Source: Acidimicrobiales bacterium
GTDB lineage: Bacteria; Actinomycetota; Acidimicrobiia; Acidimicrobiales; JAUJNH01
Direction: 5' to 3'
DNA length: 64,000 nucleotides
Assembly (NCBI GenBank): GCA_030448245.1
Contig: JAUJNH010000005.1
Coordinates: 183,308 to 247,307, forward strand
This document shows, one piece after another, positions 10,687-36,400 of this stretch (positions are counted from its first letter, which is position 1; each line of letters opens with the position of its first letter). The notes beneath the pieces were generated by a model. It worked only from the letters and a program-made list of their open reading frames with translations, was not told the origin of the DNA and did not search any database. Made by a program: the position numbers and the translations under genes.

Positions 10687-10690
10687 TGCG

Positions 10691-10955
10691 TCTCCCGCCG
10701 GGCATCGGGCTTCGCTGTCCGCCTGCCTTCCCTCGTCGCTCCCCCGACCCGCCCACAGGGCTCGCCTCCTCCACTCCTCAGTCCAGACAGGCGACACTCA
10801 GCCCTCGCCGGCTCGTACGCTGCGCTCACCCTCACCGTCTCCCGCCGGGCATCGGGCTTCGCTGTCCGCCTAGGGCCCTCGTGGCTCCCCCGACTCGCCC
10901 ACAGGGCTCGCCTCCTCCACTCCTCAGTCCAGACAGGCGACACTCAGCCCTCGCC
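10691..10955 (-). repeat. Two tandem copies (119 and 118 bp, period 147 bp, about 93% identical) directly upstream of the ALDH start
   Basis: Copy A is 10691-10809 and copy B is 10838-10955. Both contain TCTCCCGCCGGGCATCGGGCTTCGCTGTCCGCC...CCCACAGGGCTCGCCTCCTCCACTCCTCAGTCCAGACAGGCGACACTCAGCCCTCGCC. Confidence 0.9.
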
Positions 10956-12028: not shown

Positions 12029-12102
12029 GGGCGTATGGCTCAGTTGGTTAGAGCGCTGCCTTCACACGGCAGAGGTCACAGGTTCGAGTCCTGTTACGCC
12101 CA
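12029..12102 (+). tRNA. tRNA-Val (anticodon CAC)
   Basis: Cloverleaf folded by hand: acceptor GGGCGTA/TACGCCC, D arm GCTC-AGTTGGTTA-GAGC, anticodon arm CTGCC-TTCACAC-GGCAG, T arm ACAGG-TTCGAGT-CCTGT, discriminator A. No encoded CCA. Confidence 0.9.
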
Positions 12103-12164
12103 CTTGGAAACCCCCAGGTCGGAGGGGGTGCGGGAGTCGGGACTACCGCCAGACTGACCGTCGT

Positions 12165-12215: not shown

Positions 12216-13369
12216 TGCGAGGCAGCATCAGCCGGCGGGGCGACTCCTGGCGCGTGCACGTCTACCTGGGCCTGGACAGCCAGACCGGCAAGCAGCGCTA
12301 CCTGACCAGGACGGTGCACGGCACCAAGCGGGACGCCGAGCGGGTCTGCACCGAGCTGGTAACCGAGGCAGACCGGGGCGGCTTCGGGGACACCTCGGCC
12401 GTGACCTTCGCCGAGCTGGTAGAGCGCTGGCTGGAGCATCTGAAGCCTAACGTCTCGCCCGCGACCCTCGCCGCCTACAAGAACTACATGCGGAAGTGGA
12501 TCCTTCCCGCCCTCGGGACCAGGAAGCTCGACCGCATCCGTCCCGTGGACCTCGATCTGTTCTACGCCTCGCTGCGCCCGCACCTGGCGGGAGCCAGCGT
12601 GCGCAAGGTCCACACCATCCTCCACTCGGTGCTCGGCCAGGCCACCCGATGGCAGCTGATCGGCACCAACCCGGCGGCAGCGGCCACCCCGCCCCGGTTC
12701 GACAAGCCGGCCATCAACCCTCCGACACCAGAGGAGGTCGGCCGCCTTCTCGCCGCCGCCGACGAGCGCGACCCCGAGTTCGGGCTGTTCCTCCGCCTCG
12801 CCGCCGTCACCGGCGCCCGACGTGGCGAGCTGTGCGGCCTCCGCTGGACCGACTACGACCCGGCGGCGGGCGAGATCGTCCTGCGCCGATCCATCGTCCA
12901 GGGCGAGGACGGCGTCGAGGTGAAGAAGACCAAGACGAACCGCGACCGCCGTCTGGCCGTCGACGCCACCACCGTCGCCGCCCTCGACCGCCACCACGGG
13001 ATGGTCGAGAGGCGAGCCAAGGACTGCGGAGGCCGGCTGGCCAGCGGCGCCTACATCTTCTCCAGGGACGTCGAAGGCCTCGAGCCGTGGCGCCCCGACT
13101 CCGGCGTCACCGGTCGGTTTGCCGCCCTCCGCTCGAGCATCGGCCTCCCGCATGTCCGCCTCCACGACCTCCGCCACTACGTGGCCACCCGCCTCCTCGA
13201 CGCCGGCGTCCCCGTCCGCTCCGTCAGCGAGCGCCTCGGCCACGCCAGCGCCACGACGACCCTGACCATCTACGCCGCCCCCGTCCCAGCCACCGACCGC
13301 CGAGCGGCCGAGATCCTGGGGAACCTGCTGGCAAGTGAAGACGTCGCGACGCCCCCGAGCGACTCCTGA
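12215..13369 (+). CDS. int: Tyrosine recombinase / phage-type integrase
   Basis: 384 aa. N-terminal SAM-like domain, then a catalytic region with ...TGARRGELCGLRW...HDLRHYVATRLLDAGVPVRSVSERLGHASATTTLTIYA (R..HxxR..Y pattern). Confidence 0.9.
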   Translation: MRGSISRRGDSWRVHVYLGLDSQTGKQRYLTRTVHGTKRDAERVCTELVTEADRGGFGDTSAVTFAELVERWLEHLKPNVSPATLAAYKNYMRKWILPALGTRKLDRIRPVDLDLFYASLRPHLAGASVRKVHTILHSVLGQATRWQLIGTNPAAAATPPRFDKPAINPPTPEEVGRLLAAADERDPEFGLFLRLAAVTGARRGELCGLRWTDYDPAAGEIVLRRSIVQGEDGVEVKKTKTNRDRRLAVDATTVAALDRHHGMVERRAKDCGGRLASGAYIFSRDVEGLEPWRPDSGVTGRFAALRSSIGLPHVRLHDLRHYVATRLLDAGVPVRSVSERLGHASATTTLTIYAAPVPATDRRAAEILGNLLASEDVATPPSDS

Positions 13370-15297: not shown

Positions 15298-15843
15298 ATG
15301 CCTTTGCGTGAGCTCAGGAAGTGGCACATGCCGTCGATGGTTGAGGTCGTGGGGGGACGGGGTGGCAGGGTGTCCGACTGGGCCGGCGAGTCGTTCGACG
15401 AGTTCCTGTCGGCGACCCAGTCCGGTGCAGGCTGGGCCGCCGAGCGGCTGTGGACACCGCTGGCGCCGGCACTCGCCGGTTACCTGGCGGCCCGGGGAGC
15501 AGCGAAGCCGGATGACCTGACCACTGAGGTGTTCCTCGGGGTGTTCCCGAGCCTGGGCACGTTCTCGGGCTCAGAGGAGCAGTTCCGGTCTTGGATGTTC
15601 ACCATCGCCAACCGCCGCCTGACCAACGAGCGGCGTCGGACCAGGTGTCGCCCTCCGCCGGCTGGTGGGTTGGAGGCGGAGGACGGGCCGCCCAGTCCGA
15701 CCGCCGAGCACGTAGCCCTCCACCGGCTGAGCGTGGAGCGGGTCCTGACGCTGTGCGACCGGCTGGTCCCCGACCAGCGTGATGTGAAGAACGGAGCCAC
15801 CCGGCGTGCCTTCGTACCACCTCGGTGGGTGCTCGATGTCTGA
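15298..15843 (+). CDS. ECF-type sigma-70 family protein lacking the region 4.2 HTH (likely truncated or inactive)
   Basis: Region 2 is present (DDLTTEVFLGVFPSLGTFSGSEEQFRSWMFTIANRRLTNERRR). After LVPDQRDV the expected LLLR..G.s..EiA HTH is replaced by an 18-aa tail, and no HTH appears in the other frames. Confidence 0.6.
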   Translation: MPLRELRKWHMPSMVEVVGGRGGRVSDWAGESFDEFLSATQSGAGWAAERLWTPLAPALAGYLAARGAAKPDDLTTEVFLGVFPSLGTFSGSEEQFRSWMFTIANRRLTNERRRTRCRPPPAGGLEAEDGPPSPTAEHVALHRLSVERVLTLCDRLVPDQRDVKNGATRRAFVPPRWVLDV

Positions 15844-16075: not shown

Positions 16076-16632
16076 GCTGGCCAGGAGGTAGCCGGTAGCG
16101 TCGGCGACGGCCCGGTCGGCGAGGCTTGCACCCGGATCACCGCGACGCATCCGGAAGCTGGCCGAGGTCCTTCGGGTCGAGGTGTCGGACCTCATGCGCT
16201 ACGCCGGCTACCTCCCCGAGGGCGAGCCGCCGGGCGCCCATCGGCCGCTGGCCAGGTGAGCGACCTGACCACCAGCTGATCGTTCTCATCGACTGTGATG
16301 AGAGGAGTACCGGGGGGCGTCCCGGGCTTCGGCTGGAGGACCCGCGTCGACTGTTAGACGGCGACTGGTTCGCGAGCGCGCCTGATAGGGCTAAGGTGCC
16401 CTTTGAAGGCTAGAACCTTCGGCACAGGCGGCGGGTTGCTGCGGAAGGCGGGTGGTGCAGTGGACGAGGCTGAATTGATCTGCGGACGGCAGGCGCCGCC
16501 GACCTCGGCGGGCTCCGGATCCCGGCGATCTCGGTGATGGAGGGCGACCGGGCGGAGGACGCTGCTGGGGAGGCCTCGGCCGACGGGTCTGGTGGAGATC
16601 CGCACAAGATGCTCGAGAACCAGCGGGCGCGG

Positions 16633-17336
16633 ATGACCGGTGACAACAGGCTGGGGCTGTTGGGCGGCTTTGTCTTCTCGGTGGGGGGTGACGTTCTGCT
16701 TGGGGTCTCGACCGGTTCGCAGCGGCTGCTCGCCTTTTTGGCCGTGCGTGACCGGTTGACGATGCGTGACCATGTGGCTGGGACGCTGTGGCCGGAGTCG
16801 TCCGATGAGCGTGCCGGAGCCAGCCTACGATCCGCGTGTCGCGCCTGGACGGTCCGATCCGCCAGGCATTGGAAGTGACCGCGTCGGATCTGAGCCTGTC
16901 CGAGGGTGTGGCCGTTGATGTGCACAGCTCCCGGGCCTTGGCTCACCGGCTGATCGACCGAGGGGTCGCCCGTTCTGAGGGGGACATCGGGGCCGGGGCG
17001 GTCTCGTCCCTGTTGGACGATCTGCTGCCGGGGTGGTACGACGACTGGGCCATCATTGCCGCTGAGGACTGGCGCCAGCTGCGGTTGCACGCTCTTGAGG
17101 CGGTGGCGGCCCGGCTGACCGAAGCCGACCGCTTGGCCGAGGCAGCCGTTGCCGCGATGGCTGCGGTGCGAGCCGAACCGTTGCGGGAGAGCGCTCGCGC
17201 CGCGCTCATACGGGTCCACCTGGCCGAGGGGAACCAGTCGAACGCCCATGGGGAGTTCGAGCGCTACCGGGTGCTGCTCCGCGCTGAGCTGGGCGTGGCA
17301 CCGACGCCGCGCCTGCGCCAGCTCCTCGACGCGTAG
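16633..17336 (+). pseudogene. SARP/AfsR-type regulator (OmpR-like winged helix + BTAD domain) with a frameshift near 16836
   Basis: Frame 1 reads LGLLGGFVFSVGGDVLLGVSTGSQRLLAFLAVRD..MRDHVAGTLWPESSDERAGASLRSA. It continues in another frame as SRLDGPIRQALEV...LLPGWYDDW...RAALIRVHLAEGNQSNAHGEFERYR.LL.AELGV.P. Confidence 0.7.
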
Positions 17337-17790: not shown

Positions 17791-17855
17791 AACTTCACGC
17801 CTTCACGCTAGGACCTAGGGCTGCCTGGGGCCCCCTCAGGACCAGACCCATGCGG

Positions 17856-17890
17856 CGCCCGGGATCGGCACCTCCTGCTCGCTCGGTAAC
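17856..17890 (+). promoter_or_regulatory. Island motif copy 1 (CGCCCnnnnTCGGCAC-N15-TAAC)
   Basis: CGCCCGGGATCGGCACctcctgctcgctcggTAAC. Lies 93 nt upstream of the GTG 17983 ORF. Confidence 0.45.
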
Positions 17891-17982
17891 GCGGGCTGCT
17901 CGAGGCGAGCGTTGTGTTGCGGCGCCAGACCTGCCTCTCCCTCCATGGTCCGTCCGTCACGGCACGTGGATAGGCTCCGCTG

Positions 17983-18285
17983 GTGGCAAGACCGTGGTGG
18001 CTCGAGCCGACGGGCCTTCCTCCGGCTGACCGGAGGAAGCTGGCCGCCGGGCCGACGGAGGCCGACATCCGTCGCAGCCGCTGGCTGCGAAGCCACCGCG
18101 TCCTGGTTTCCATCGTGAGCGGGACCCTATGGGGGTTGGTCTGCGGCCTGGTTTTCTGGCTGCTCCTGGATCACAACCTGATGGTCCTCATCGGTTGGCT
18201 GGTCGCTGGATTGGTAGTGCAGGGTCCGATATCCACGATGATGCTGATGCGGCAGTTGGACAGGTCGTCGCAGCGCAACCAGTAG
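17983..18285 (+). CDS. Small membrane protein with an N-terminal RPWW motif (paralog of 23513-23815)
   Basis: 100 aa: VARPWWLEPTGLPPADRR..., then two hydrophobic helices (VLVSIVSGTLWGLVCGLVFWLLL, MVLIGWLVAGLVV). Lower GC than the surroundings. Confidence 0.5.
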   Translation: MARPWWLEPTGLPPADRRKLAAGPTEADIRRSRWLRSHRVLVSIVSGTLWGLVCGLVFWLLLDHNLMVLIGWLVAGLVVQGPISTMMLMRQLDRSSQRNQ

Positions 18286-18366
18286 TGATCGTCCGGCAGG
18301 ACTTCACCGGAGGCACTCTCGCTGACGAGACCGGTCACTTGTCGTTCAACACCGTGGCTCCTCACC

Positions 18367-18401
18367 CGCCCGGGATCGGCACGTGCCGAGCGTCCGGTAA
18401 C
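18367..18401 (+). promoter_or_regulatory. Island motif copy 2
   Basis: CGCCCGGGATCGGCACgtgccgagcgtccggTAAC. Lies 115 nt upstream of a possible GTG 18516 ORF. Confidence 0.4.
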
Positions 18402-18515
18402 GCTCCACGTGGAGAGGCTGCCGCCCGAGGCGCGTTACAACGCCCTCGGCGTTGCCAGCAGCACTGGTTACCGCCGGGTCGAGTTCCTGGTCACGCTTGT
18501 GGAGATGCCCTGAAC

Positions 18516-18698
18516 GTGGCCGGCACCAACCTCGAGCTCGGCCTGCACCAGTCTGGCGGTCCTCGGTCCCAGACCGAGGACCGCTTCTTCTCCCGCCAGT
18601 CGGTGGCGATCGACGTCCCGCTCAGCTTCTACCAGCTGGCCGCCCTGTTCCCCTACGACCCCGGTCATCTGACAGGAGCTCGGCATCTTCCTGGGTGA
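18516..18698 (+). CDS. Possible 60-aa ORF downstream of motif copy 2
   Basis: VAGTNLELGLHQSGGPRSQTEDRFFSRQSVAIDVPLSFYQLAALFPYDPGHL... reads protein-like, but it is short and unsupported by any family. Confidence 0.25.
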   Translation: MAGTNLELGLHQSGGPRSQTEDRFFSRQSVAIDVPLSFYQLAALFPYDPGHLTGARHLPG

Positions 18699-18723
18699 AC
18701 AGCTCCCTGGCGCGTCCGGGAGA

Positions 18724-19287
18724 TCAGGGGGTGCGGGGCGTGAACGAGACGGTGACCCGGCGGTTCTTCGCCCGACCCACCGGGTCGTCCTCCCCGCCGC
18801 TCGACGTTCGGGGCCACCGGTTCCCGGGCGGCTCGGCCCTCGGTGGCGATCTGGGTGCCGGGCGGCAGGCTCGCCCGGGGGTAGCACCGCCCCGGCGGCC
18901 TGGGCCCGCTGGTTCGACAGGACGGCATTGGACGCGCCGTCACCGATCGAGTCGGTGTGCCCGACGACCGTCACCGGTTGGGTCGTGCCGCCGATCCGGC
19001 CCGCCAGCTCCTTGAGTTTGGCCGTGGCCTCACTTGTGAGCGTTGCGCTGGCGAAGTCGAACAGCACGTCCGAGCTGATGGTCACGACCGTCTGCTCGCC
19101 CTTCTTGGCCTCAGTGCGAAGCACGGTGACACTGTTCCGGGTCTCATAGACCGTCACCGATCCACGGGGGTCGTAGATGGTGACCGAGGCCGCCAGCTCG
19201 CTGGTGGAGGGCTCCCGGTGGAGGGCCTGGGCCGGCACGGCGAACGGGACAGCCAGGAGCGACACGACGGCGAGGACGAGGCTCACC
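18724..19287 (-). pseudogene. OmpA-family peptidoglycan-binding protein with signal peptide, broken by two frameshifts (about 18873 and 18796)
   Basis: VSLVLAVVSLLAVPFAVPAQA...ISSDVLFDFASATLTSEATAKLKELA...VTVVGHTDSIGDGASNAVLSNQRAQA. The domain continues in frame 2 (IATEGRAAREPVAPN) and frame 3 (EDDPVGRAKNRRVTVSF). Confidence 0.7.
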
Positions 19288-19879
19288 GCTGGATCGTCGA
19301 CACCGCCTTGAAGGCGGGCCACCAGTCGGAGGCGTGGACGTCGACGGTGGTGATGGGGTCCTCGGGGGCCGCGAAGACGGCGAACGCGCTCATTGACGTG
19401 CCGTTGACCGTCCTCGTGTCGACGGAGTCGGAGGCAAAGCGCGACCCGCTCCCCTTGACGACGTCGTAGCGCTTCAGGTTGCCCAGGTCCAGCAGGTAGG
19501 GATTGAAGCCGCTCCCCTCGTAGATGTCGAAGATCTGGATGGTTTCGGCCGCCGGCTTGGACTTGAACCGCGGGGTCAGCACCAGCTGCAGCGTGGCGAT
19601 CTTGCCCGACACCGTCAGGGAGACCAGGCCAACCTCGACGGTGTCCTCCGGCTTCTTCCGCAGCTTGAAGGTTTGGCGGGCCACGACCTTGTCCGGGTCG
19701 ACCGTAGCCACCTGCGAGGGGGCAGCGGACCCGCCGGCGCCCTTCGCCGCCTTCTCCGTGACCGGCGTGGGCCCCGTCGCCGACCCCTCCTTCTCGCCGG
19801 AGCACCCGCCGAGCAGAGCGATCGACAGCGCAATGGTGGACGCCAGCGAGGCTCTATGGGATCGGTGAGATCGTTTCAC
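19283..19879 (-). CDS. Lipoprotein, function unknown
   Basis: GAGGAGA SD and GTG start. Lipobox IALLGGCSG. 198 aa, with its stop overlapping the OmpA-like start. Confidence 0.7.
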   Translation of the reverse strand: MKRSHRSHRASLASTIALSIALLGGCSGEKEGSATGPTPVTEKAAKGAGGSAAPSQVATVDPDKVVARQTFKLRKKPEDTVEVGLVSLTVSGKIATLQLVLTPRFKSKPAAETIQIFDIYEGSGFNPYLLDLGNLKRYDVVKGSGSRFASDSVDTRTVNGTSMSAFAVFAAPEDPITTVDVHASDWWPAFKAVSTIQR

Positions 19880-20191
19880 ACTGGCGTCTCCTCGTCGGCG
19901 GACCTGCCGACCCTACTTGTCGGCAGCTTCGCAGCCGCTCCAGTCGGCGCCTCGCCAGCGGCAACGTTGGCCAGATGGGGGCTCCTGGTCGTATGCGGTT
20001 TCCGCTCTGGGCGACTGCCCACTTCGCCCGGCCTCCCGGGCCACAAGTGGGCCATGGTGGCGTCGCGTCAGCCAGCGGCGCGGATCTCGGGGTTGGCGGC
20101 GAAGCTGGCAGCGGTGGCGGGGCCGGCAGCCCAGCGTAGTCGGTAATCTTCGGCTGCCCCTTCGAGGCGGTCGCCGAACACGACTCGAGAA

Positions 20192-20226
20192 CGCCCGACT
20201 TCGGCACGAGGTGAGCGCTCGGTAAC
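20192..20226 (+). promoter_or_regulatory. Island motif copy 3
   Basis: CGCCCGACTTCGGCACgaggtgagcgctcggTAAC. Lies 150 nt upstream of 20376. Confidence 0.45.
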
Positions 20227-20375
20227 TCCGCTCGACCACTCGGTCGACCGCGCTCAAGTGCTCTGCGGTGTGAGAGCGACGCTGACCGTCTGGGAGGGCC
20301 GTCGGCGACTTCCTCGCCGCAGCTAGGATCAGGACGCTGTCGACCTGGAGTGGATGTGTCTGCAAGGCAGGGCAT

Positions 20376-20866
20376 GTGATGGCGGCGGTTCGGACGAATC
20401 TGCTGGCCTTGAGGCCTTCACGAAAGGCGCCTCGAGCAGGCGACGTATTCGCCATGCAGCTGCCCGATGAGCGGTTCTTGTTCGGACGGGTCGTGAGCAC
20501 CGAAGCCATGGCGGGACCGTCGATGCCGGGAGCGATCCTGATCTACGTGTGTCGGCCCCGGTTCGACTCGATGACGGCGCCGGACCGCTCCGAGCTCTCA
20601 CGACGAAGTTGCTCGTACCGCCCATGATGACGAACAAGCTGCCTTGGTCGAAGGGCTACTTCCAGACCGTCGACCACTGGCCGCTGGAACCAGGCGACCT
20701 GCTCCGTCAGCACTGCTTCCTCAGTGGAGCACGGGCGCGCTACTTCGACGAAGCGGGCAACGAACTACCGGGTCCGGTCGAGCCGGTCGGTGATTACGGG
20801 CTTCACAGCTTTCGGACCATCGACGATGCCGTGAGCGACGCGCTAGGAATCGACCGCGCGCCATGA
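20376..20866 (+). pseudogene. Imm26-like polymorphic-toxin immunity protein, frameshifted near 20597
   Basis: RAGDVFAMQLPDERFLFGRVVS...GAILIYVCRPRFDSM... continues in another frame as LLVPPMMTNKLPWSKGYFQTVDHWPLEP...YFDEAGNEL. The family assignment is from memory of the Imm26 pattern. Confidence 0.5.
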
Positions 20867-21051
20867 CGAGCCCCGCTATGCCGCGGGCACCGAGTAACCA
20901 GCACCGCATCGCCACTAGCACGGCGGAGCAGGGCCCATCGTCGGGATTTCGTTCGTCCTGGGTGCCCGCGACCCCCTACCCCTGAGGCGCCAACGGACCG
21001 AAGGGGTCGAAGGGTCGGCGCCTCCACCTGGCCCTCGGGTCGCCTCGCGAA

Positions 21052-21086
21052 CGTCCCACTTCGGCACCTCCGGCGCGCTGCATAAC
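21052..21086 (+). promoter_or_regulatory. Island motif copy 4
   Basis: CGTCCCACTTCGGCACctccggcgcgctgcaTAAC. Lies 32 nt upstream of GTG 21118. Confidence 0.45.
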
Positions 21087-21117
21087 AGCTGCCCGGGGTG
21101 CACGCCAGACTCGGCTG

Positions 21118-21720
21118 GTGGACGTCGACCAGCACGCAGTCCTCCAAGCGGCACTCGAGCGCGCCAAGGCACTCGCCTCGTCGGATGAGGAGGCCCTTCG
21201 TGACCTGCATGCGCCGAGCCTTCGTTGGACGACCCACACGGGCCAGGTCCTTGATCGGGAGAGCTACATAGCCGGCAACGTCGGCGACTCGCTGATCTGG
21301 CGGAGCCAGATCCTCGAGGACGTCCACATCCAGGTGTACGGCGACTTTGGAGTCTTGACGGGAGTGGTCGTCGACGAAGTCGAGCGAGATGGGCGAGCGT
21401 CGACCTTCAGGCTGCGGCTGACGCAGGTCTGGGCCCGAGATCGTGGCGGCACGTGGCGATGCGTGGCCGGGCATGCCGGACCGAAGCTCGGACGACGACG
21501 TGCCGTCGGAGCGTCGTTTCAGCGTCGGCAGGTCGGGGCGACCCGCCCGGATTTGCGAGAGCGACGTCTTAGGCCGCGCCTTCCCGAGCGTGGCACCCAG
21601 TCGGCGCGCCCGCCCGGGAACGGCACCAGTCGGGCGCCCGGTAAACGCAGCCCTACGGGCCCTTGGATGGGCTGGAGCCCTTGCTTGTCAGCTGCGGACA
21701 GGGCTGCGTCGCAGCGTTGA
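21118..21720 (+). CDS. NTF2-like / DUF4440 (SnoaL-like fold) protein; the last 75 or so codons look like a non-coding read-through
   Basis: VDVDQHAVLQAALERAKALASSDEEALRDLHAPSLRWTTHTGQVLDRESYIAGN...FRLRLTQVWARDRGGTWRCVAGHAG. The arginine-rich tail after this is implausible as protein. Confidence 0.6.
   Translation: MDVDQHAVLQAALERAKALASSDEEALRDLHAPSLRWTTHTGQVLDRESYIAGNVGDSLIWRSQILEDVHIQVYGDFGVLTGVVVDEVERDGRASTFRLRLTQVWARDRGGTWRCVAGHAGPKLGRRRAVGASFQRRQVGATRPDLRERRLRPRLPERGTQSARPPGNGTSRAPGKRSPTGPWMGWSPCLSAADRAASQR
21611..21645 (+). promoter_or_regulatory. Island motif copy 7 (variant: AACGGCAC ... TAAA)
   Basis: CGCCCGGGAACGGCACcagtcgggcgcccggTAAA. No obvious plus-strand gene follows; it faces the 3' end of the minus-strand phosphoesterase. 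Confidence 0.3.
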
Positions 21721-21761
21721 CCGGCCGGCGCTCGGTGAGGTCGATCGCTCAACGGACCTCG

Positions 21762-23181
21762 TCAGCGGGTGATGACGATAGGCATGTCGGCCGTGCCACC
21801 CCCGACAGCAGCGGCTTCGACGGGGACCGGCCGGCCGGCGGCGTCGAGACGGACGACGGGCAGGATGGAGATGCGGTCGGCGTCGACTTCAAGGAGCAGC
21901 AGGTGCGGCTCAGCCGCCCAACTCCGGAGGCCGGCGGCATCGACTCCATCGGGCTCCCCGGCCGCAACTTCCCCCGGCGCCCGACACGAGGTAGTGGATG
22001 CCGTCGTTGACCGCGTGCTGGAAGTTGTGCTCGTGCCCGGAGAGCACCACCCGCACGCCCCCGCCCTGGTAGCGCGGTACGAGTGAGCGGATCTGGGCCT
22101 CGTCGTTGTGGTGCTTCGGGCCCGCACAGTACGGCGGGTGGTGGCCGAAGGGGATCAACCAGCGGCTGCGGTCGGCGCGGGTGAGGTCGAAGGCCTCGTT
22201 GAGGAACGGCTGGTGCTCTGGGTCGTCGAAGTAGCGGTCTACCTCGAAGGCGCTGGCTTCGGAGGTGTCTATGCAGAGGAGCTCGACCAGGCGCCCGAAC
22301 GACACCCGGTAGAACAGCCCGGGAAGCTCTTTGCCCTCGATCTCCACGATGTCCCGGTCCTCCTCGACCGAGGGGTTGAAGCGCAGGTCGGTGAAGTGGT
22401 TGTCGGCGAGTTGGCCCCGGTCGTCGCTGTGCTCGGTCTCTGCCACGTCGTGATTGCCGACACAGGGGTATACCGGAACCTTACGGCTTAACACGAACCG
22501 GTAGGGCTCGTAGTAGCTGAAGTACCAGTCGTCATCCTCACGACCACTGCCGCCGGCGCTGTCGTCGCCGTGATAGATGTTGTCGCCCAGGGTCACGACG
22601 AAGTCAATGCCCGGGTCCTCTACGAGGTGCTCGAGGACCGGCGCGATATGGCGCTGGTGGCGGCCGGCGTCGTCCCCGGTCTGGATTCCGATGCCGTAGT
22701 CGCCGAACGCAGCAAAGCGGGCCGTGGTGGCGGCCCCTGGTTCGGGGAACGTGCGGAACCGGCAGTCGTAGGTTCGACCAGCCGGGCGGAGCTCGCCCCG
22801 GTCGCCGTCGATCGGCTGCCAACGCATGCAGCTGTCGGGCACCCACGGACGGCCGTCGACGGTGATCTCGTAGCGGTACTCGGTGTCGGAGTGGAGGCCC
22901 GTGACCCAGACGTGGTTGGTCTCGCTCGTTCGCGCCTCGCCGGCGAGGCGACCATCGCCGTCGAAGACCTGTACCCGCGCGTCGCCATAGGGCTCGGAGC
23001 GGGCGCCGATGCTCTCGGTGCGCCCCGGGTCGACCTCGTGGAGCTCCTCGTCGTCGACGGTCCGCCAGCCCCGCCCGTCGGGGAAAGGGCGGAACCAGAA
23101 GCCACCCCAGGCGATGAGCACCTGGTCGTCGTCCAGATCGGCAAGGTGCACGAAGGGCTCGAAGTGCAGGCCGTCCTCCAT
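21762..23181 (-). pseudogene. Purple-acid-phosphatase-like metallophosphoesterase, single frameshift at a C5/G5 run (21971-21975)
   Basis: FAAFGDYG...VTLGDNIY...CVGNHD...SGHEHNFQH...HYLVSGAGG. The C-terminus continues in another frame (EVAAGEPDG...EPHLLLLEVDADRISILPV). A homopolymer sequencing error could explain it. Confidence 0.75.
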
Positions 23182-23319
23182 GAGCCCATCCTGGCAGGCA
23201 CAGAAGGGACCCGCATCGAGGCGTCCGGGCCGCGCCGTTACCCTATGCGGCGCCTTGAGAGCGGGCCCGGCTCACCGCGCCGAGGGGCCTGTTGAGGCTC
23301 AGCCGGCCCGTGGCAGAAA

Positions 23320-23354
23320 CGCCCCACTTCGGCACCACCTTCGCGCTCGGTAAC
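23320..23354 (+). promoter_or_regulatory. Island motif copy 5
   Basis: CGCCCCACTTCGGCACcaccttcgcgctcggTAAC. Lies 159 nt upstream of ATG 23513. Confidence 0.45.
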
Positions 23355-23512
23355 GTCGGCCGGCCAGACGTTGACCTGACCTACTTCATCCGCCCGGACG
23401 ACGTAGTGGCGGAGTTGGAAGACCGCCTGAGACCCTTTGGTCGGTGGCGCCCCCACGGGCCCACGCTCAAGGGTGCTGCTTGCGCCTTCACCGGGGCGGG
23501 TACGTCTCCGAA

Positions 23513-23815
23513 ATGGGCAGCCCCACACCTGACGGCCGGCCGTGGTGGCGCCGGCCCGAGGGGATGCCTGCGTGGATGCAGCGTCGAGCGGATGCCGCCC
23601 GCAATCGTGACCTTACGCGGGGGAGGATTCTCTTCCTCCGCTTGTACGTACTAACTGTTCTCTGCGCTTTTGGCATCGCAGTAGTCTTACGCTCCTGGGC
23701 GCTTGCGCTCGTTTTCTATCGAGCCCGTTCACGACGATTGCTATGTGGCCCGCTGAGACACGCAAAGCCGTCCTCAGGGGACTCCTTCATGGGAGCGAGA
23801 GGCACGCGAGGATAA
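23513..23815 (+). CDS. Small membrane protein with RPWW motif (paralog of 17983-18285)
   Basis: MGSPTPDGRPWWRRPEGMPAW...RILFLRLYVLTVLCAFGIAVVLRSWALALVFY. RPWWrrPeGmP versus RPWWlePtGlP in the other copy. Locally AT-richer. Confidence 0.4.
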   Translation: MGSPTPDGRPWWRRPEGMPAWMQRRADAARNRDLTRGRILFLRLYVLTVLCAFGIAVVLRSWALALVFYRARSRRLLCGPLRHAKPSSGDSFMGARGTRG

Positions 23816-24187
23816 CGGACTGAAGTCCTGACGCCACGCCGAGACGTTCCAGGTTCTCCACCGACCCCGAGCTCGACGCTAAGGCTCCGCGAGTTGGACG
23901 TGGTTGCAGGTGCGCCCTGCGGAAGGCATCGGGGTCAACCCCCATGGCTTGTCCCTTCCGGATAGGATACACGGGTGAGGGCTCGGCCTCTACATGTTGC
24001 GCGCCGTCGACGCCGGCTAGCGGCGCAGCCCGGCACCTACTCGTCAGAGGAAGGGCTGCCTGGTCGGCCGCCGCGCCGAAGCGGATTGACCCGACCGGAT
24101 CAGCGGCGTGTCCCGCAACTCGTACCAACCACGTCTCTGCTATAACGCCGTCGTCCCTGTTCGGCTTGGCTCGATCGCCTTGGAAGG

Positions 24188-24221
24188 CGCCCGGGCTCGG
24201 CACCTGTCGAGCGCTCGTAAC
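24188..24221 (+). promoter_or_regulatory. Island motif copy 6 (spacer 14)
   Basis: CGCCCGGGCTCGGCACctgtcgagcgctcgTAAC. Lies 191 nt upstream of ATG 24412. Confidence 0.4.
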
Positions 24222-24411
24222 GCGTCGACCGTCAGGCCCCGCCGTGGCGCCTTGAAGGCGCGTCGACGTGCGCTGCAGCCCGACATGCCGAGCCTTCGCG
24301 GCCTCCCCGATCGGCAGATCGGTGACGGTGCCGAGGAAGCGGTGGAGGAGCGACGAGGGGGCTCGAGCAGCTCGATGTTCACAGCGCTTGGCCTTGCTGC
24401 ATACTGCGGGG

Positions 24412-24627
24412 ATGGCCGAGGAAGTGGAACTCATCAGCGACGGCGAAGGGCTGGCGGTGGTTGGGAGCCCGACGGCTGTCGAACGCTTCATGGAGTCAGC
24501 GGGTCTGTCGTTGAACGCTGGATCCACTCATCGCCGCCGCCTCGGTCCAGCGCGACGAGGTTGCCGAGAGTTCTTCCTGAGACCACTTGTCGCGATCGGC
24601 GTCGTGGAGGGGCCGTATAGAGGGTGA
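24412..24627 (+). CDS. Possible small ORF downstream of motif copy 6
   Basis: MAEEVELISDGEGLAVVGSPTAVERFMESAGLSL... The N-terminus reads protein-like, the remainder is arginine-rich and doubtful. Confidence 0.3.
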   Translation: MAEEVELISDGEGLAVVGSPTAVERFMESAGLSLNAGSTHRRRLGPARRGCREFFLRPLVAIGVVEGPYRG

Positions 24628-24653: not shown

Positions 24654-24926
24654 ATGACGGACACCACGAGAACCCCTGCCCCTGGCGGCGGCCGGCCGTA
24701 TCCGCCGGATGCCTCTCTCGCCGGCCTCCCGCTGATGCTCACCGTCGACGAGGCCGCCGGTCTCCTTCGGATCAGTCGAACCAGCGCCTACAAGCTCGCC
24801 CACGAGTGGCGGTGCACGGCCGGCGCCACCGGCCTGCCGACAGTTCGCCTGGGCAGCCGGATCATGGTGCGCCGTGTCGACCTGGCCGTCATCGTCGGCC
24901 TCAGCCGGCCGAATGATCTCTCGTGA
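24654..24926 (+). CDS. xis: Excisionase-type helix-turn-helix DNA-binding protein
   Basis: GAGGAGGA SD. LTVDEAAGLLRISRTSAYKLAHE...LPTVRLGSRIMVRRVDL is the typical Xis/MerR-like HTH_17 pattern. A TATAGA -10-like box lies at 24616-24621. Confidence 0.7.
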   Translation: MTDTTRTPAPGGGRPYPPDASLAGLPLMLTVDEAAGLLRISRTSAYKLAHEWRCTAGATGLPTVRLGSRIMVRRVDLAVIVGLSRPNDLS

Positions 24927-27696: not shown

Positions 27697-27741
27697 CCTT
27701 CACACGGCAGAGGTCACAGGTTCGAGTCCTGTTACGCCCAC
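27697..27741 (+). repeat. attR: 45-bp perfect direct repeat of the tRNA-Val 3' half (matches 12059-12103)
   Basis: CCTTCACACGGCAGAGGTCACAGGTTCGAGTCCTGTTACGCCCAC is identical at both sites. It runs from the anticodon loop to one base past the 3' end of the tRNA. Confidence 0.9.
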
Positions 27742-27842
27742 GGACCGACAAACCTCAAGTCGGAGGGGGCGGCGGGTTCCGAGGGCCGGTCACACCGACC
27801 ATCGTGGTGATGAGGAGCCGAGGACTCGTGACCCTTGGTGAT

Positions 27843-28016
27843 GTGCGAGGCAGCATCAGCCCGGGCAGCTCCTGGCGCGTCCACGCCTACCTGGGCCTCG
27901 ACAACCAGACCGGCAAGGACCGCTACCTGACCAGGACGGTGCAGGACACTGGGGTCGACCCGGTCGCGGACATTCACGATCAGGCCCGTAGCAGTGGTGC
28001 CGGGCGGCGGCGGTGA
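27843..28016 (+). pseudogene. Truncated integrase (first 35 or so codons homologous to int at 12215)
   Basis: VRGSISPGSSWRVHAYLGLDNQTGKDRYLTRTVQ versus VRGSISRRGDSWRVHVYLGLDSQTGKQRYLTRTVH in int. Homology ends near 27947 and a stop follows at 28016. Confidence 0.8.
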
Positions 28017-35471: not shown

Positions 35472-36371
35472 ATGCTTCGCTACCGGGCCGATCGGTCATC
35501 ACTGGGTTGTGTCATCGCGAGCGCCACGGGCCAGGTGGCGTGGCTTGCCACCGGGAAGGTCGCCTTCCTTCTGCCCATGTTCGCAGCGCTGCGTTGGACC
35601 GCCCTCGTCCAGCACAACCAGTCGCACTTGACCATGTTCAGGCACCGATGGGCCAACCGGCTCCTCGAGCTGACGCTCGGCACCGTGACCGGCACGCCGA
35701 TGGAGCTCTACCGGGAAGCGCATGCCCGCACGCACCACCCTCACGTCGGTACTGCCAAGGACTGGACCCAGCCGACGCAGCTGCGTGACGGGCAGGCTCT
35801 CCAGTGCCAGCCGCTCTCCCGGTGGCGGTACCTGTACGTGTTCGCGCCGCGAAGCTGGTTCGTCGGATGCTCCGCAGTGAGACGAGTCCGTTCCCAGATG
35901 CGGTGCCTCATCGCCGAGGGTGCGGCGATGGCCGTTCTCGCCGCCCTGCCCGTCCTCCTGGGCTCACCCGTCAGGCTCCTCCCCATCGTCTTCCAGTGGA
36001 CCCTCGTGGCGGTCTTCTCCGCCCACGCCAACTACGAGCACCACAACGGCTACCTGGAGGCTGACCGGCCCACCGACTTCGCCAACGACACCGCCTCCCG
36101 GTTGCACACCTCCCTCGGCTTCAACATCGGGTACCACACCGCGCACCACCGCAGGCCGAACGCACACTGGACGAAGCTTCCAGATCTGGAGGCGAAGCGA
36201 GCTCCGCAGCCGGCGATGCGCAGCGTGGCCCCCGCCGACATGGCGAGACCCGGCAGCAGCCCTTCTAGCTCCGTGGCACAGGGAAGGGAGCTCCCGGAGG
36301 GGCCGGTCAGTGGCGTCTCCATGAGCAGCCCGCGGATGCGCCCTGGGTACGGCACCACTCGGGCGCGGTGA
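35472..36371 (+). CDS. Fatty acid desaturase family membrane protein
   Basis: Three histidine boxes: HNQSH, HARTHH and HTAHH, with hydrophobic segments between them. The C-terminal tail may be over-extended. Confidence 0.7.
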   Translation: MLRYRADRSSLGCVIASATGQVAWLATGKVAFLLPMFAALRWTALVQHNQSHLTMFRHRWANRLLELTLGTVTGTPMELYREAHARTHHPHVGTAKDWTQPTQLRDGQALQCQPLSRWRYLYVFAPRSWFVGCSAVRRVRSQMRCLIAEGAAMAVLAALPVLLGSPVRLLPIVFQWTLVAVFSAHANYEHHNGYLEADRPTDFANDTASRLHTSLGFNIGYHTAHHRRPNAHWTKLPDLEAKRAPQPAMRSVAPADMARPGSSPSSSVAQGRELPEGPVSGVSMSSPRMRPGYGTTRAR

Positions 36372-36400
36372 CGCACCCCCACTCACGCACGCAGCGATGG

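Follow-up and report, generated by a model that had tools for sequence, protein, structure and literature searches.

The 64,000-nt stretch of DNA analysed here (hereafter the window; contig JAUJNH010000005.1 of an Acidimicrobiales bacterium, positions 183,308 to 247,307) carries, inside a genomic island integrated at a tRNA-Val gene, seven same-strand copies of a 37-nt intergenic element that alternate with small, unrelated genes. We favour the interpretation that this element is a duplex-DNA site for Xer-like site-specific recombination delimiting exchangeable cassettes, a reading that we consider probable from comparison with related loci. The cognate enzyme is most likely a recombinase of a family specific to Acidimicrobiia (P0003/P0047), which would catalyse the exchange. 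Since no member of this family is found within the 64 kb, the most fitting description of the window locus is an array that lacks a recombinase, may be decaying and lies within the tRNA-Val island, resembling the clusters of attC sites lacking integron-integrases (CALINs).

The conserved element of about 35 bp recognised in the initial annotation is real. It reads CGCCCGnnnn-CGGCAC-N8-CGCyCGGTAAC, also written nnCGCCCGnnnnCGGCAC-N8-CGCyCGGTAAC, and its seven copies, all on the plus strand, span positions 17854-24221. Allowing up to three mismatches, the core pattern has six matches against 0.07 expected from shuffled sequences, and scans of the 64 kb with a position weight matrix (PWM) and with an indel-tolerant nhmmer profile return exactly these seven copies, each at E <= 6e-5. 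Every site is built of imperfect inverted arms of about 11 bp (nCGCCCGAnnn / nnnTCGGGCGn) around an asymmetric invariant 6-bp centre, CGGCAC, and continues beyond the right arm in a conserved 3' extension, yCGGTAAC. Alignment of 89 copies gives CGCCCG(N4)-CGGCAC-(N4)CGGGCG, with four columns of the central hexamer invariant and the other two conserved at >= 90%. This architecture is that of dif-type sites, defined as two imperfect inverted arms of ~11 bp around a 6-11-bp centre in a total of ~28-31 bp (PMC5357621). Sites m1 (17854-17890, core 17866-17871), m3 (20190-20226, core 20202-20207) and m6 (23318-23354, core 23330-23335) are, like m2, m4 and m5, found by the motif, PWM and nhmmer scans; the right arm of m1 is CTCCTGCTCGCTCGGTAAC. 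Site m2 (18365-18401, core 18377-18382) has the left arm CCCGCCCGGGAT, m4 (21050-21086, core 21062-21067) has a degenerate right arm, CGCTGCATAAC, and m5 (21609-21645, core 21621-21626) ends in TAAA. The final copy of the array, m7 (24186-24221, core 24198-24203), has a 1-nt deletion in its right arm.

Related loci, designated by L and a number, were collected with the exact core from one genome per species and with the full-length degenerate pattern from metagenome and viral contigs, and copies were counted in a census with an indel-tolerant profile. The exact-core scan yielded mostly background singletons together with five Acidimicrobiia/Actinomycetota contigs that carry the extended motif, three of them with two to three same-strand copies, and one motif-bearing locus per genome. 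The degenerate pattern is matched by 64 metagenome contigs and, in the viral-contig scan, by none. The census counts 104 copies in 65 loci, and in 26 of the 27 loci with at least two copies these lie strictly on the same strand, with core-to-core spacings of 385-3023 bp (median 1.35 kb). The element is intergenic across the related loci, which are chromosomal, with housekeeping genes in their flanks. Their arrays carry toxin-antitoxin proteins (PIN, MazF, ParE, ribbon-helix-helix (RHH)), GNAT, Lsr2, methyltransferases, dehydrogenases and many products of unknown function. Exact-pattern matches inside long genes (L087/95/117/128, L096/136, L108) are presumed to be chance occurrences; they are excluded from the census and spacing figures, and from those for a second box described below, and are included in the gene-orientation counts. 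In the window, the 48 kb of backbone contain no motif match at PWM >= 15. A degenerate, solitary eighth copy, GCGCCCTGGGTACGGCACCACTCGGGCGCGGTGAC, gives a partial nhmmer match with indels (E 0.0046) in the chromosome backbone at 36341-36375 (+). It is placed 8.6 kb past the right end of the island, at the 3' end of a fatty-acid desaturase open reading frame (ORF) and beside a methyltransferase gene, and may represent a relic site of the chromosome.

All-against-all comparison of the loci, followed by inspection at the nucleotide level, places recombinant junctions at the centre of the site. The pairs L120/L134, L074/L102, L083/L132, L090/L122 and L088/L092 have unrelated DNA upstream and distinct left arms, and become nearly identical at CGGCAC or just 5' of it; in L120/L134 this near-identity extends over 831 nt at 97%. 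The window takes part in such a junction through L139, a locus with three motif copies that encodes an 80%-identical homologue of RPWW1, the membrane protein of the first cassette of the window. The 511-bp RPWW1 unit is 78% conserved in L139 from 17866, exactly the first base of the m1 CGGCAC, to m2. Upstream of the m1 core the two loci have different modules; at m2 the left arm is identical in 12 of 12 positions to the corresponding L139 copy, and after the core the right part has diverged and the downstream sequences are unrelated. Relocation of modules is seen between L140 and L150, two loci with 95% identity in their recombinases: a 1.44-kb adh_short module, 98% identical between them, stands upstream of the recombinase gene in L140 and ~6 kb downstream of it in L150, and a GNAT module is relocated too. 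Three explicit joints can be read in this pair: [adh...left arm A]CGGCAC[right arm B...TA], [X...]CGGCAC[right arm B...TA] and [adh...left arm A]CGGCAC[right arm C...]. In each joint the left arm belongs to the module upstream and the right arm to the module downstream. By hand tally the junction is the left-arm/core boundary in roughly 9 of the 11 examined pairs, which argues for site-specific rather than homologous exchange. L140 (13724-13822) and L150 (5582-5680) also share a 99-nt unit, 99% identical, that runs from a core start to a left-arm-like GCGCCCAGATCG with unrelated DNA on either side; it may be an 'empty' mini-cassette.

The candidate recombinase was found next to the site. In L036 and L140 a gene for a tyrosine recombinase of ~305 amino acids lies about 70-107 nt, according to the measure used, downstream of a motif copy. 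The family of the L036 protein (P0003/P0047) has thousands of members at >= 70% identity, including proteins of Candidatus Microthrix. Its domains, SAM_1 followed by the catalytic domain, are those of a simple tyrosine recombinase, and the catalytic signature R...HxxR...H...Y is readable, with the first R in GLRISEAL, then HSLRH, and H...Y in SHADRRTTMRY. Scores against the NCBIfam equivalogs are 139-152 bits for XerC/XerD (cut-offs 330-335), 125-133 bits for XerA (cut-off 220), 64-69 bits for XerS (cut-off 267) and 53-57 bits for IntI (cut-off 435). The integrase_gron subfamily model gives 69-74 bits (cut-off 265) over residues ~210-300, the C-terminal catalytic part only. By these models the P0003 proteins are neither XerC/D nor IntI but form a group of simple, Xer-like recombinases of their own.

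Linkage of gene and site was assessed in seven independent loci encoding the family (L140, L149, L150, L151, L152, L153 and a Microthrix locus). Four of them (L140, L149, L150 and L151, with recombinases at >= 80% identity) have motif copies within 10 kb at PWM >= 15, and all ten of these copies are on the recombinase strand. A motif-like site is present 70-110 nt 5' of the recombinase start codon in six of the seven loci; it is canonical in L140, L150 and L151 and progressively diverged in L152, L153 and Microthrix, and is followed by a conserved hairpin in the 5' untranslated region (5'-UTR) and a Shine-Dalgarno sequence. L149 has a degenerate trace alone at that position and its best copy 760 nt upstream. 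The host of the window belongs with this distribution, which we count in favour of the proposed site-recombinase pair: the best named matches of its CobQ protein are from Acidimicrobiales, a clade with both the site and the recombinase family.

Other functions of the element were considered. The genes of the array had been described as individually promoted, each copy being followed by a small plus-strand gene. In the window five of the seven copies precede co-oriented ORFs, at 32-190 nt, and m5 faces the 3' end of a convergent minus-strand metallophosphoesterase gene. Counted over the whole family, downstream genes are co-oriented 32 times and convergent 27 times, and upstream genes co-oriented 38 times and divergent 26 times, at motif-gene distances of 10-394 nt. 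These counts use gene calls from a codon model self-trained on the loci, which misses weak-bias genes such as the DUF4440 gene of the window; for high-scoring genes alone the split is still about even (~13 co-oriented versus 16 convergent, by hand tally). Any promoter reading is disfavoured by this near-equal orientation of the downstream genes. A consensus scan finds no sigma-70-type promoter or terminator coinciding with any window copy, and the block spacing (CGGCAC, 13 nt, GGTAAC) does not fit known -35/-10 geometries of sigma-70 or extracytoplasmic function (ECF) sigma factors, as judged by inspection. Inspection of the block spacings likewise led us to reject a sigma-54-like GG-N10-GC, the heptad of Streptomyces antibiotic regulatory proteins (SARP) and a GlnR-type periodicity; the sigma-54-like reading was dropped also because Actinomycetota, to our knowledge, have no sigma-54. 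We conclude that the element is not a gene-oriented promoter, and the description of the genes as individually promoted is not supported.

The element is not a folded RNA or single-stranded DNA either. Across 89 distinct copies the paired fraction is 63.0% versus 62.7% in shuffles, a result without covariation; the folding of 105-nt segments gives no stability excess (mean z -0.17), and Rfam scans of the array and 12 related loci return no family. A hairpin or structured nucleic acid, which some copies such as that of L074 resemble closely, was rejected on the absence of covariation and of excess stability. We also discarded a comparison with attC in which GGTAAC would stand for R'', or its complement for R', since the conserved bases flank the triplet on the wrong side and an inverted partner is missing. 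The same fate befell an oriT-like reading for a HUH relaxase (hairpin plus CGGTAA), as the hairpin is not upheld; HUH/relaxase families are not among the most frequent families of the related loci, where a single TrwC-like protein (L023) was recognised by eye.

A second box, ATCCGGAAyTGCCGG, follows the site at +36-38 nt in L013, L074, L081, L099, L102, L118, L119, L122 and L131. It contains the inverse of the core, and some homologies between loci stop at the box. Some box-bearing copies also have TCCGGAAAC ~30 nt further on, and in L122 two full sites face each other 113 nt apart. IS110-family elements target REP and attC repeats, and genes or fragments of IS110-family (DEDD) transposases are located within a few hundred nucleotides of sites in L013 (3999-4573) and L102 (4264-4563). 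The box was nevertheless rejected as an IS110 end, being present in just ~10 of 84 copies and followed by unrelated sequences.

We propose that an Xer-like recombinase would bind both arms of the site and exchange strands in or beside CGGCAC, so that one module's left arm becomes joined to another's right arm. Sites in direct repeat would therefore delimit excisable and insertable cassettes of 0.4-3 kb. Recombination between direct repeats would excise a cassette as a circle with one hybrid site, and the circle could re-integrate at any site. Each cassette would hold one or two genes in either orientation, so that cassettes probably bring their own promoters. What the sequences show is the repeat with its polarity and intergenic position, the junctions at the core, the relocation of modules and the linkage of site and recombinase gene; catalysis by that enzyme, the exact cleavage positions and any continuing activity of the window copies are inferred. 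Such activity would have to be provided in trans, because the P0003-family recombinase is not encoded in the window. More tentatively, and as a possibility that we place just short of probable, Acidimicrobiia and perhaps other Actinomycetota would possess a platform for cassette exchange on duplex DNA, made of a class-specific Xer-like recombinase, an adjacent 11-6-11 site (core CGGCAC) and promoter-bearing cassettes that this site would serve to capture, excise and reshuffle. It would amount to an 'actinobacterial integron' using dif-type rather than attC chemistry; the pair might double as the system by which the class resolves chromosome dimers, and tRNA-integrating islands could take arrays like that of the window from one genome to another.

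Several observations weigh against recombination at this site as we propose it. In contrast to known dif sites, the arms vary in their inner four bases and are conserved in the outer ones, and the yCGGTAAC extension, though conserved, is left without a role in our scheme. The homology blocks of L101/L112 and L074/L102 end 50-70 nt past a site, at a second hot-spot of junctions where no canonical site is recognisable, and L109/L116 share the whole site, left arm included. The loci L152, L153 and Microthrix, whose recombinases have 74-79% identity, show diverged sites only and no detectable array. The recombinase family is present in just 3 of the ~65 motif loci found by DNA pattern, with two more encoding other tyrosine recombinases, although the contigs are mostly short. 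In the window itself the recombinase is missing, the arms are more degenerate (GAGCGC for GGGCGC) and m4, m5 and m7 are imperfect; given these arms and the frameshifted cargo, the array may be a fossil. All of the evidence is comparative.

Four other explanations were weighed. The element could be the chromosomal dif of a single-recombinase Xer system, its extra copies being pseudo-dif scars of integrative mobile elements exploiting Xer recombination (IMEX) and the window array an inert relic without any cassette biology. This narrower variant of the proposed site-specific exchange, with the same chemistry and another biological role, is in our opinion rather unlikely. It accounts for the 11-6-11 layout and for the adjoining conserved Xer-like gene, which has a fixed context in the sampled Microthrix loci and recalls XerS/difSL (PMC5357621). 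It also has precedents, since class-specific simple tyrosine recombinases replace Xer in some taxa (PMC8138268) and the Legionella dif system was first revealed through its mimicry by a mobile element (PMC9765430). A chromosomal dif acts as a single site at the replication terminus, where GC skew switches, and its loss impairs segregation; the GC skew around the recombinase, taken from 20-kb loci only, shows the expected sign change in four of the seven loci, but not in the other three. The seven copies of the window are inside a tRNA-Val island, away from the recombinase, and modules have moved to both sides of the recombinase gene between the sister genomes L140 and L150, which looks more like active shuffling than like IMEX scars. 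A repetitive extragenic palindromic (REP)-like or insulator repeat, for instance a site for a nucleoid or termination factor undergoing occasional homologous or illegitimate recombination with no dedicated recombinase, is unlikely. The strictly intergenic position, the partial palindrome CGCCCG-N14-CGGGCG, the IS110-family transposases beside copies in L013 and L102 and the recurrence of Lsr2-type nucleoid proteins in the loci would suit it. Repeats of this kind form hairpins and are scattered between genes over the whole genome in tens to hundreds of copies. However, the copies here are not dispersed, as judged from contigs and species representatives: species genomes have one locus each and the 48 kb outside the island hold one degenerate copy only. 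Same-strand arrays (26/27) and co-orientation with the recombinase (10/10) are unexpected for REPs or bacterial interspersed mosaic elements, and the lack of hairpin covariation, the clustering of junctions at the left-arm/core boundary and the module of site and recombinase in six of seven loci speak against such a repeat.

We regard as very unlikely that the element is a promoter or operator under a dedicated regulator, with shuffling as a by-product of homologous recombination. Candidate regulators are encoded immediately upstream of the array by an ECF-type sigma ORF (15298-15843) and a SARP-type gene (16534-17336), and most window copies do precede co-oriented ORFs. The copy found at a fixed distance 5' of the recombinase gene, ahead of the 5'-UTR hairpin and Shine-Dalgarno sequence, could be or overlap a promoter, and some of these recombinase-proximal copies end in GATAAT or GGTAAT, similar to a -10 hexamer. 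Yet the downstream gene is convergent nearly as often as co-oriented, m5 and L029_1534 included, and the block spacing and the consensus scan reported above do not reveal a promoter. The sigma ORF of the window has no region 4, the SARP gene is split by a frameshift, and BTAD and sigma-70 families are not among the top 25 families per batch in the related loci. Moreover, junctions cluster on one side of CGGCAC and are not spread throughout the 37 nt. The polyimmunity island put forward in the initial annotation, in which orphan immunity genes would be kept as a repertoire against polymorphic toxins, is extremely improbable. Such a locus would be expected to have genes of several recognised immunity families, as a rule close to toxin cassettes or derived from them. 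One genuine Imm26-family gene is present and NTF2-like folds serve in some immunity proteins, but Imm26 is the sole recognised immunity family: just one of about nine products, frameshifted, belongs to it. The DUF4440 protein is a generic NTF2-like protein, the remaining cargo is heterogeneous (a membrane protein, an OmpA-like protein, a lipoprotein, a phosphoesterase) and the related arrays are miscellaneous. No Rhs, LXG/WXG, deaminase or nuclease toxin was noticed among the translated island ORFs and the Pfam-scanned proteins, which are part of the window ORFs. The second option of the initial annotation, a cassette locus on a mobile element, agrees with our reading of the repeat as a recombination site delimiting modules of an array within the tRNA-Val island.

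From core to core, the array has six complete cassettes of 511, 1825, 860, 559, 1709 and 868 bp and a truncated distal seventh. Cassette 1 (17866-18376, +) carries the RPWW1 membrane-protein gene (17983-18285), a real gene with a good coding signature (GC content at third codon positions (GC3) of 0.83) and homologues at 93% and 80% identity. Cassette 2 (18377-20201) contains ORF 18516-18698 on the plus strand and, on the minus strand, an OmpA-like gene at ~18468-19322 and a lipoprotein gene at 19283-19879. The putative ORF 18516-18698, described earlier as unassignable, remains so, with no Pfam match and no tblastn homologue among the fetched loci. The OmpA-like gene is disrupted at its C-terminal end (Pfam OmpA 37.9 bits, profile positions 1-64 of 98). 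The lipoprotein gene has a GC3 of 0.91 and a lipobox-like signal peptide read straight off the sequence; an exact look-up of its sequence found no match on record. These two genes and the metallophosphoesterase gene, all on the minus strand, had been omitted when the locus was described as a run of plus-strand genes, a description that does not hold. The gene of cassette 3 (20376-20866, +) was correctly assigned to Imm26: the first ORF scores 27.1 bits with Pfam, and repair of a 1-nt frameshift near 20590 raises the score to 42.6 bits over profile positions 2-90 of 107. The assignment of the cassette 4 gene (21118-21500, +) to DUF4440, with a SnoaL-like NTF2 fold, is likewise sound (Pfam 66.5-67.9 bits; the frame stays open to 21720 and the domain stops near residue 120). 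The further proposal that it belongs to an Imm-NTF2 family fails, neither Pfam Imm-NTF2 family matching at E <= 0.1.

Cassette 5 holds the metallophosphoesterase gene (21762-23181, -; Pfam Metallophos 58.5 bits), which runs opposite to the sites and has a frameshift near 21950 as well as a change of the high-GC3 frame at about 21900. ORF RPWW2 of cassette 6 (23513-23815, +) encodes a possible membrane protein; its GC3 of 0.63 is a weak coding signal, and it has no tblastn homologue among the fetched loci. Its presumed paralogy to RPWW1 is doubtful, as a single BLASTP comparison gives 15/41 identities (E 1e-4). Distal to m7, ORF 24412-24627 (+), the other product previously left unassigned, is the remnant of a truncated gene: it encodes the N-terminal ~50 residues of a protein of at least 300 amino acids, with 51% identity over 53 residues (tblastn) to L093 12565-12723, within a 303-amino-acid ORF flanked by two L093 sites. 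Several cargo genes appear decayed, with frameshifts in the Imm26 (~20590), metallophosphoesterase (~21950) and OmpA-like (~18880) genes, and a further one in the SARP gene (~16850).

The integration of the carrier at a tRNA gene, also anticipated in the initial annotation, is borne out. ARAGORN predicts tRNA-Val(CAC) at 12029-12103 (+), and its 3' 45 nt (12059-12103, attL) are repeated exactly at 27697-27741 (+, attR), the only two copies in the window. With this direct repeat of a tRNA 3' end and an adjoining tyrosine integrase, the carrier has the hallmarks of a tRNA island. The integrase gene (12254-13369, +) encodes an arm-type N-terminal domain (Pfam Phage_int_SAM_3 56 bits) and a catalytic domain (Phage_integrase 74 bits), scores 55 bits only against the XerD model, and serves the island, not the array. 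The island of 15.6 kb also has in its backbone an excisionase-like (Xis-like) HTH_17 gene (24654-24926, +; 32.3 bits), and carries genes for an S8 protease and for RHH and Phd/ParE toxin-antitoxin proteins. In the ECF-like ORF sigma-70 region 2 is present and region 4 absent, and the SARP-like regulator is split into a winged helix-turn-helix part (16534-16878) and a BTAD part (16836-17336); both genes look inactivated, or hit by indel errors. The sister assembly GCA_030447705.1 (contig JAUJOI010000003.1; L154), 99.6% identical, differs by 10 indels in 1.9 kb beside the island versus 4 in 10.8 kb elsewhere, and because of this excess some island pseudogenes may be assembly artefacts. The sister contig, if colinear, would end ~180 nt beyond m2 (window ~18.58 kb). 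The protein collection contains no RPWW1 at >= 99% identity, its top match, from another sample, having 93%; the two sister genomes, near-identical otherwise, may thus have different arrays.

Immediately after the island, positions 27750-28016 contain a remnant of ~270 nt that matches the 5' region of the island integrase gene at 70-95% identity and is the trace of an earlier occupant of tRNA-Val; next comes, on the opposite strand, a gene for a LuxR-type regulator. A second tandem island after 27741 is ruled out, this remnant being all that is found there. On the other side, an intergenic tandem duplication of ~147 bp (10689-10955; copies 98-100% identical) lies upstream of tRNA-Val. The DNA of the window is of high GC content (0.65-0.78), and its first 10,800 nt are backbone with a cobalamin cluster (CobQ, CobD/CbiB, CobO, CobB/CbiA), a YkuD L,D-transpeptidase and an aldehyde dehydrogenase; the sister contig also shows CobU, CobS and CobN. 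CobQ of the window is 99% identical to the protein on the sister-strain contig and 87% to a protein named 'Acidimicrobiales bacterium'.

In Candidatus Microthrix (L141-L148) the recombinase orthologue occupies a fixed chromosomal position, with a diverged site-like sequence upstream of its gene. One flank is a defence and toxin-antitoxin cluster with a CD-NTase and Cap15 of a cyclic-oligonucleotide-based antiphage signalling system (CBASS), RloB/AAA_21, PemK, PIN/DUF433, MNT and IS4. The other flank has strain-variable small ORFs with a direct repeat of ~110 nt (L141 12637-12743 and 13947-14052).

If the proposed function is correct, a large and environmentally abundant actinobacterial class would have an analogue of integrons built around a recombinase of another subfamily and a short site in duplex DNA. 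This would open a new route of accessory-gene flux in soil and wastewater Acidimicrobiia, relatives of Candidatus Microthrix included, with toxin-antitoxin, defence and immunity genes among the cargo. The scale is suggested by the 64 metagenome contigs from one pattern scan and by the thousands of members of the recombinase family. The signature CGCCCG-N4-CGGCAC-N8-CGCyCGGTAAC would be a simple means of finding cassettes in metagenomes, and one could then test if the class relies on this recombinase-site pair as its missing or alternative dif/Xer system. Being compact and perhaps active on double-stranded DNA in hosts of high GC content, the pair would also be a possible genetic tool.

A literature search by motif, taxon and concept found no published description of this system. 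Integrons are the standard example of cassette-based gene capture. Like integrons and CALINs, the loci described here are same-strand arrays of a repeated site enclosing small, mostly one-gene modules with heterogeneous cargo in which acetyltransferases, toxin-antitoxin pairs and small or unknown proteins predominate. Close relatives differ in the order and content of their cassettes, as in the relocation between L140 and L150 and in the RPWW1 cassette shared by two arrays; a gene for a simple, Xer-related tyrosine recombinase is found beside the primary site, and recombinase-less arrays such as that of the window exist. The recombinase is, however, not IntI, the integrase marked by a specific insertion in its catalytic domain (69-74 bits for integrase_gron against the cut-off of 265), and none is encoded in the window. 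Integron attC sites are imperfect palindromes of 57-141 nt, variable in sequence and folded as single strands, whereas the site here is short and conserved in sequence, with no covariation or single-stranded structure, and lacks the R''/L''-L'/R' boxes. Integron cassettes are mostly promoterless and co-oriented with the array; here genes are split roughly 55:45 in orientation, with no logic of a Pc-type common promoter, and the recombinase gene is co-oriented with the array and located between sites. Actinomycetota, the phylum of the host, reportedly have essentially no integrons.

The Xer/dif systems and the IMEX that use them (CTX/TLC/VGJ at Vibrio dif1, Legionella LME-1; XerS/difSL, XerH/difH, XerL) share with our element the imperfect inverted arms of ~11 bp and the 6-bp centre. 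The dif architecture consists of two such arms with partial dyad symmetry around 6 bp, and difSL adjoins the XerS gene (PMC5357621) as the site here adjoins a single Xer-like recombinase gene. Recombinase-less elements in tandem, bounded by direct repeats of the site, are also known among IMEX. On the other hand, the recombinase scores below the XerC, XerD, XerS and XerA equivalog cut-offs, the conservation of the arms is inverted (outer bases kept, inner ones variable) and an extra conserved extension of 9 nt is present. The modules are gene cassettes of 0.4-3 kb, not phages or large islands, and arrays are also found away from the recombinase, as in the tRNA-Val island.

The pdif modules of Acinetobacter are similar in being discrete accessory modules, toxin-antitoxin pairs included, that have Xer-type boundary sites of 28 bp, shuffle between replicons and have no recombinase of their own. 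The pdif sites around a module alternate between XerC-XerD and XerD-XerC orientation, whereas the sites here are direct repeats in 26 of 27 arrays. Insertion sequences target pdif sites (PMC10132070), and IS110-family genes adjoin some of our sites. The pdif modules are found chiefly on Rep_3 plasmids in a single genus and depend on its housekeeping XerC/D; the arrays described here are chromosomal and island-borne in Acidimicrobiia, with a distinct single recombinase as candidate. The carrier of the window resembles other tRNA-integrated islands in its arm-type tyrosine integrase at tRNA-Val, 45-nt att repeat, Xis-like HTH_17 protein and toxin-antitoxin modules. Such an island explains the arrival of the region at this position but not the 37-nt repeat inside it, whose sequence is not related to att. 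The system works like integrons, IMEX and pdif arrays, yet it departs from each of them in features by which that system is defined.

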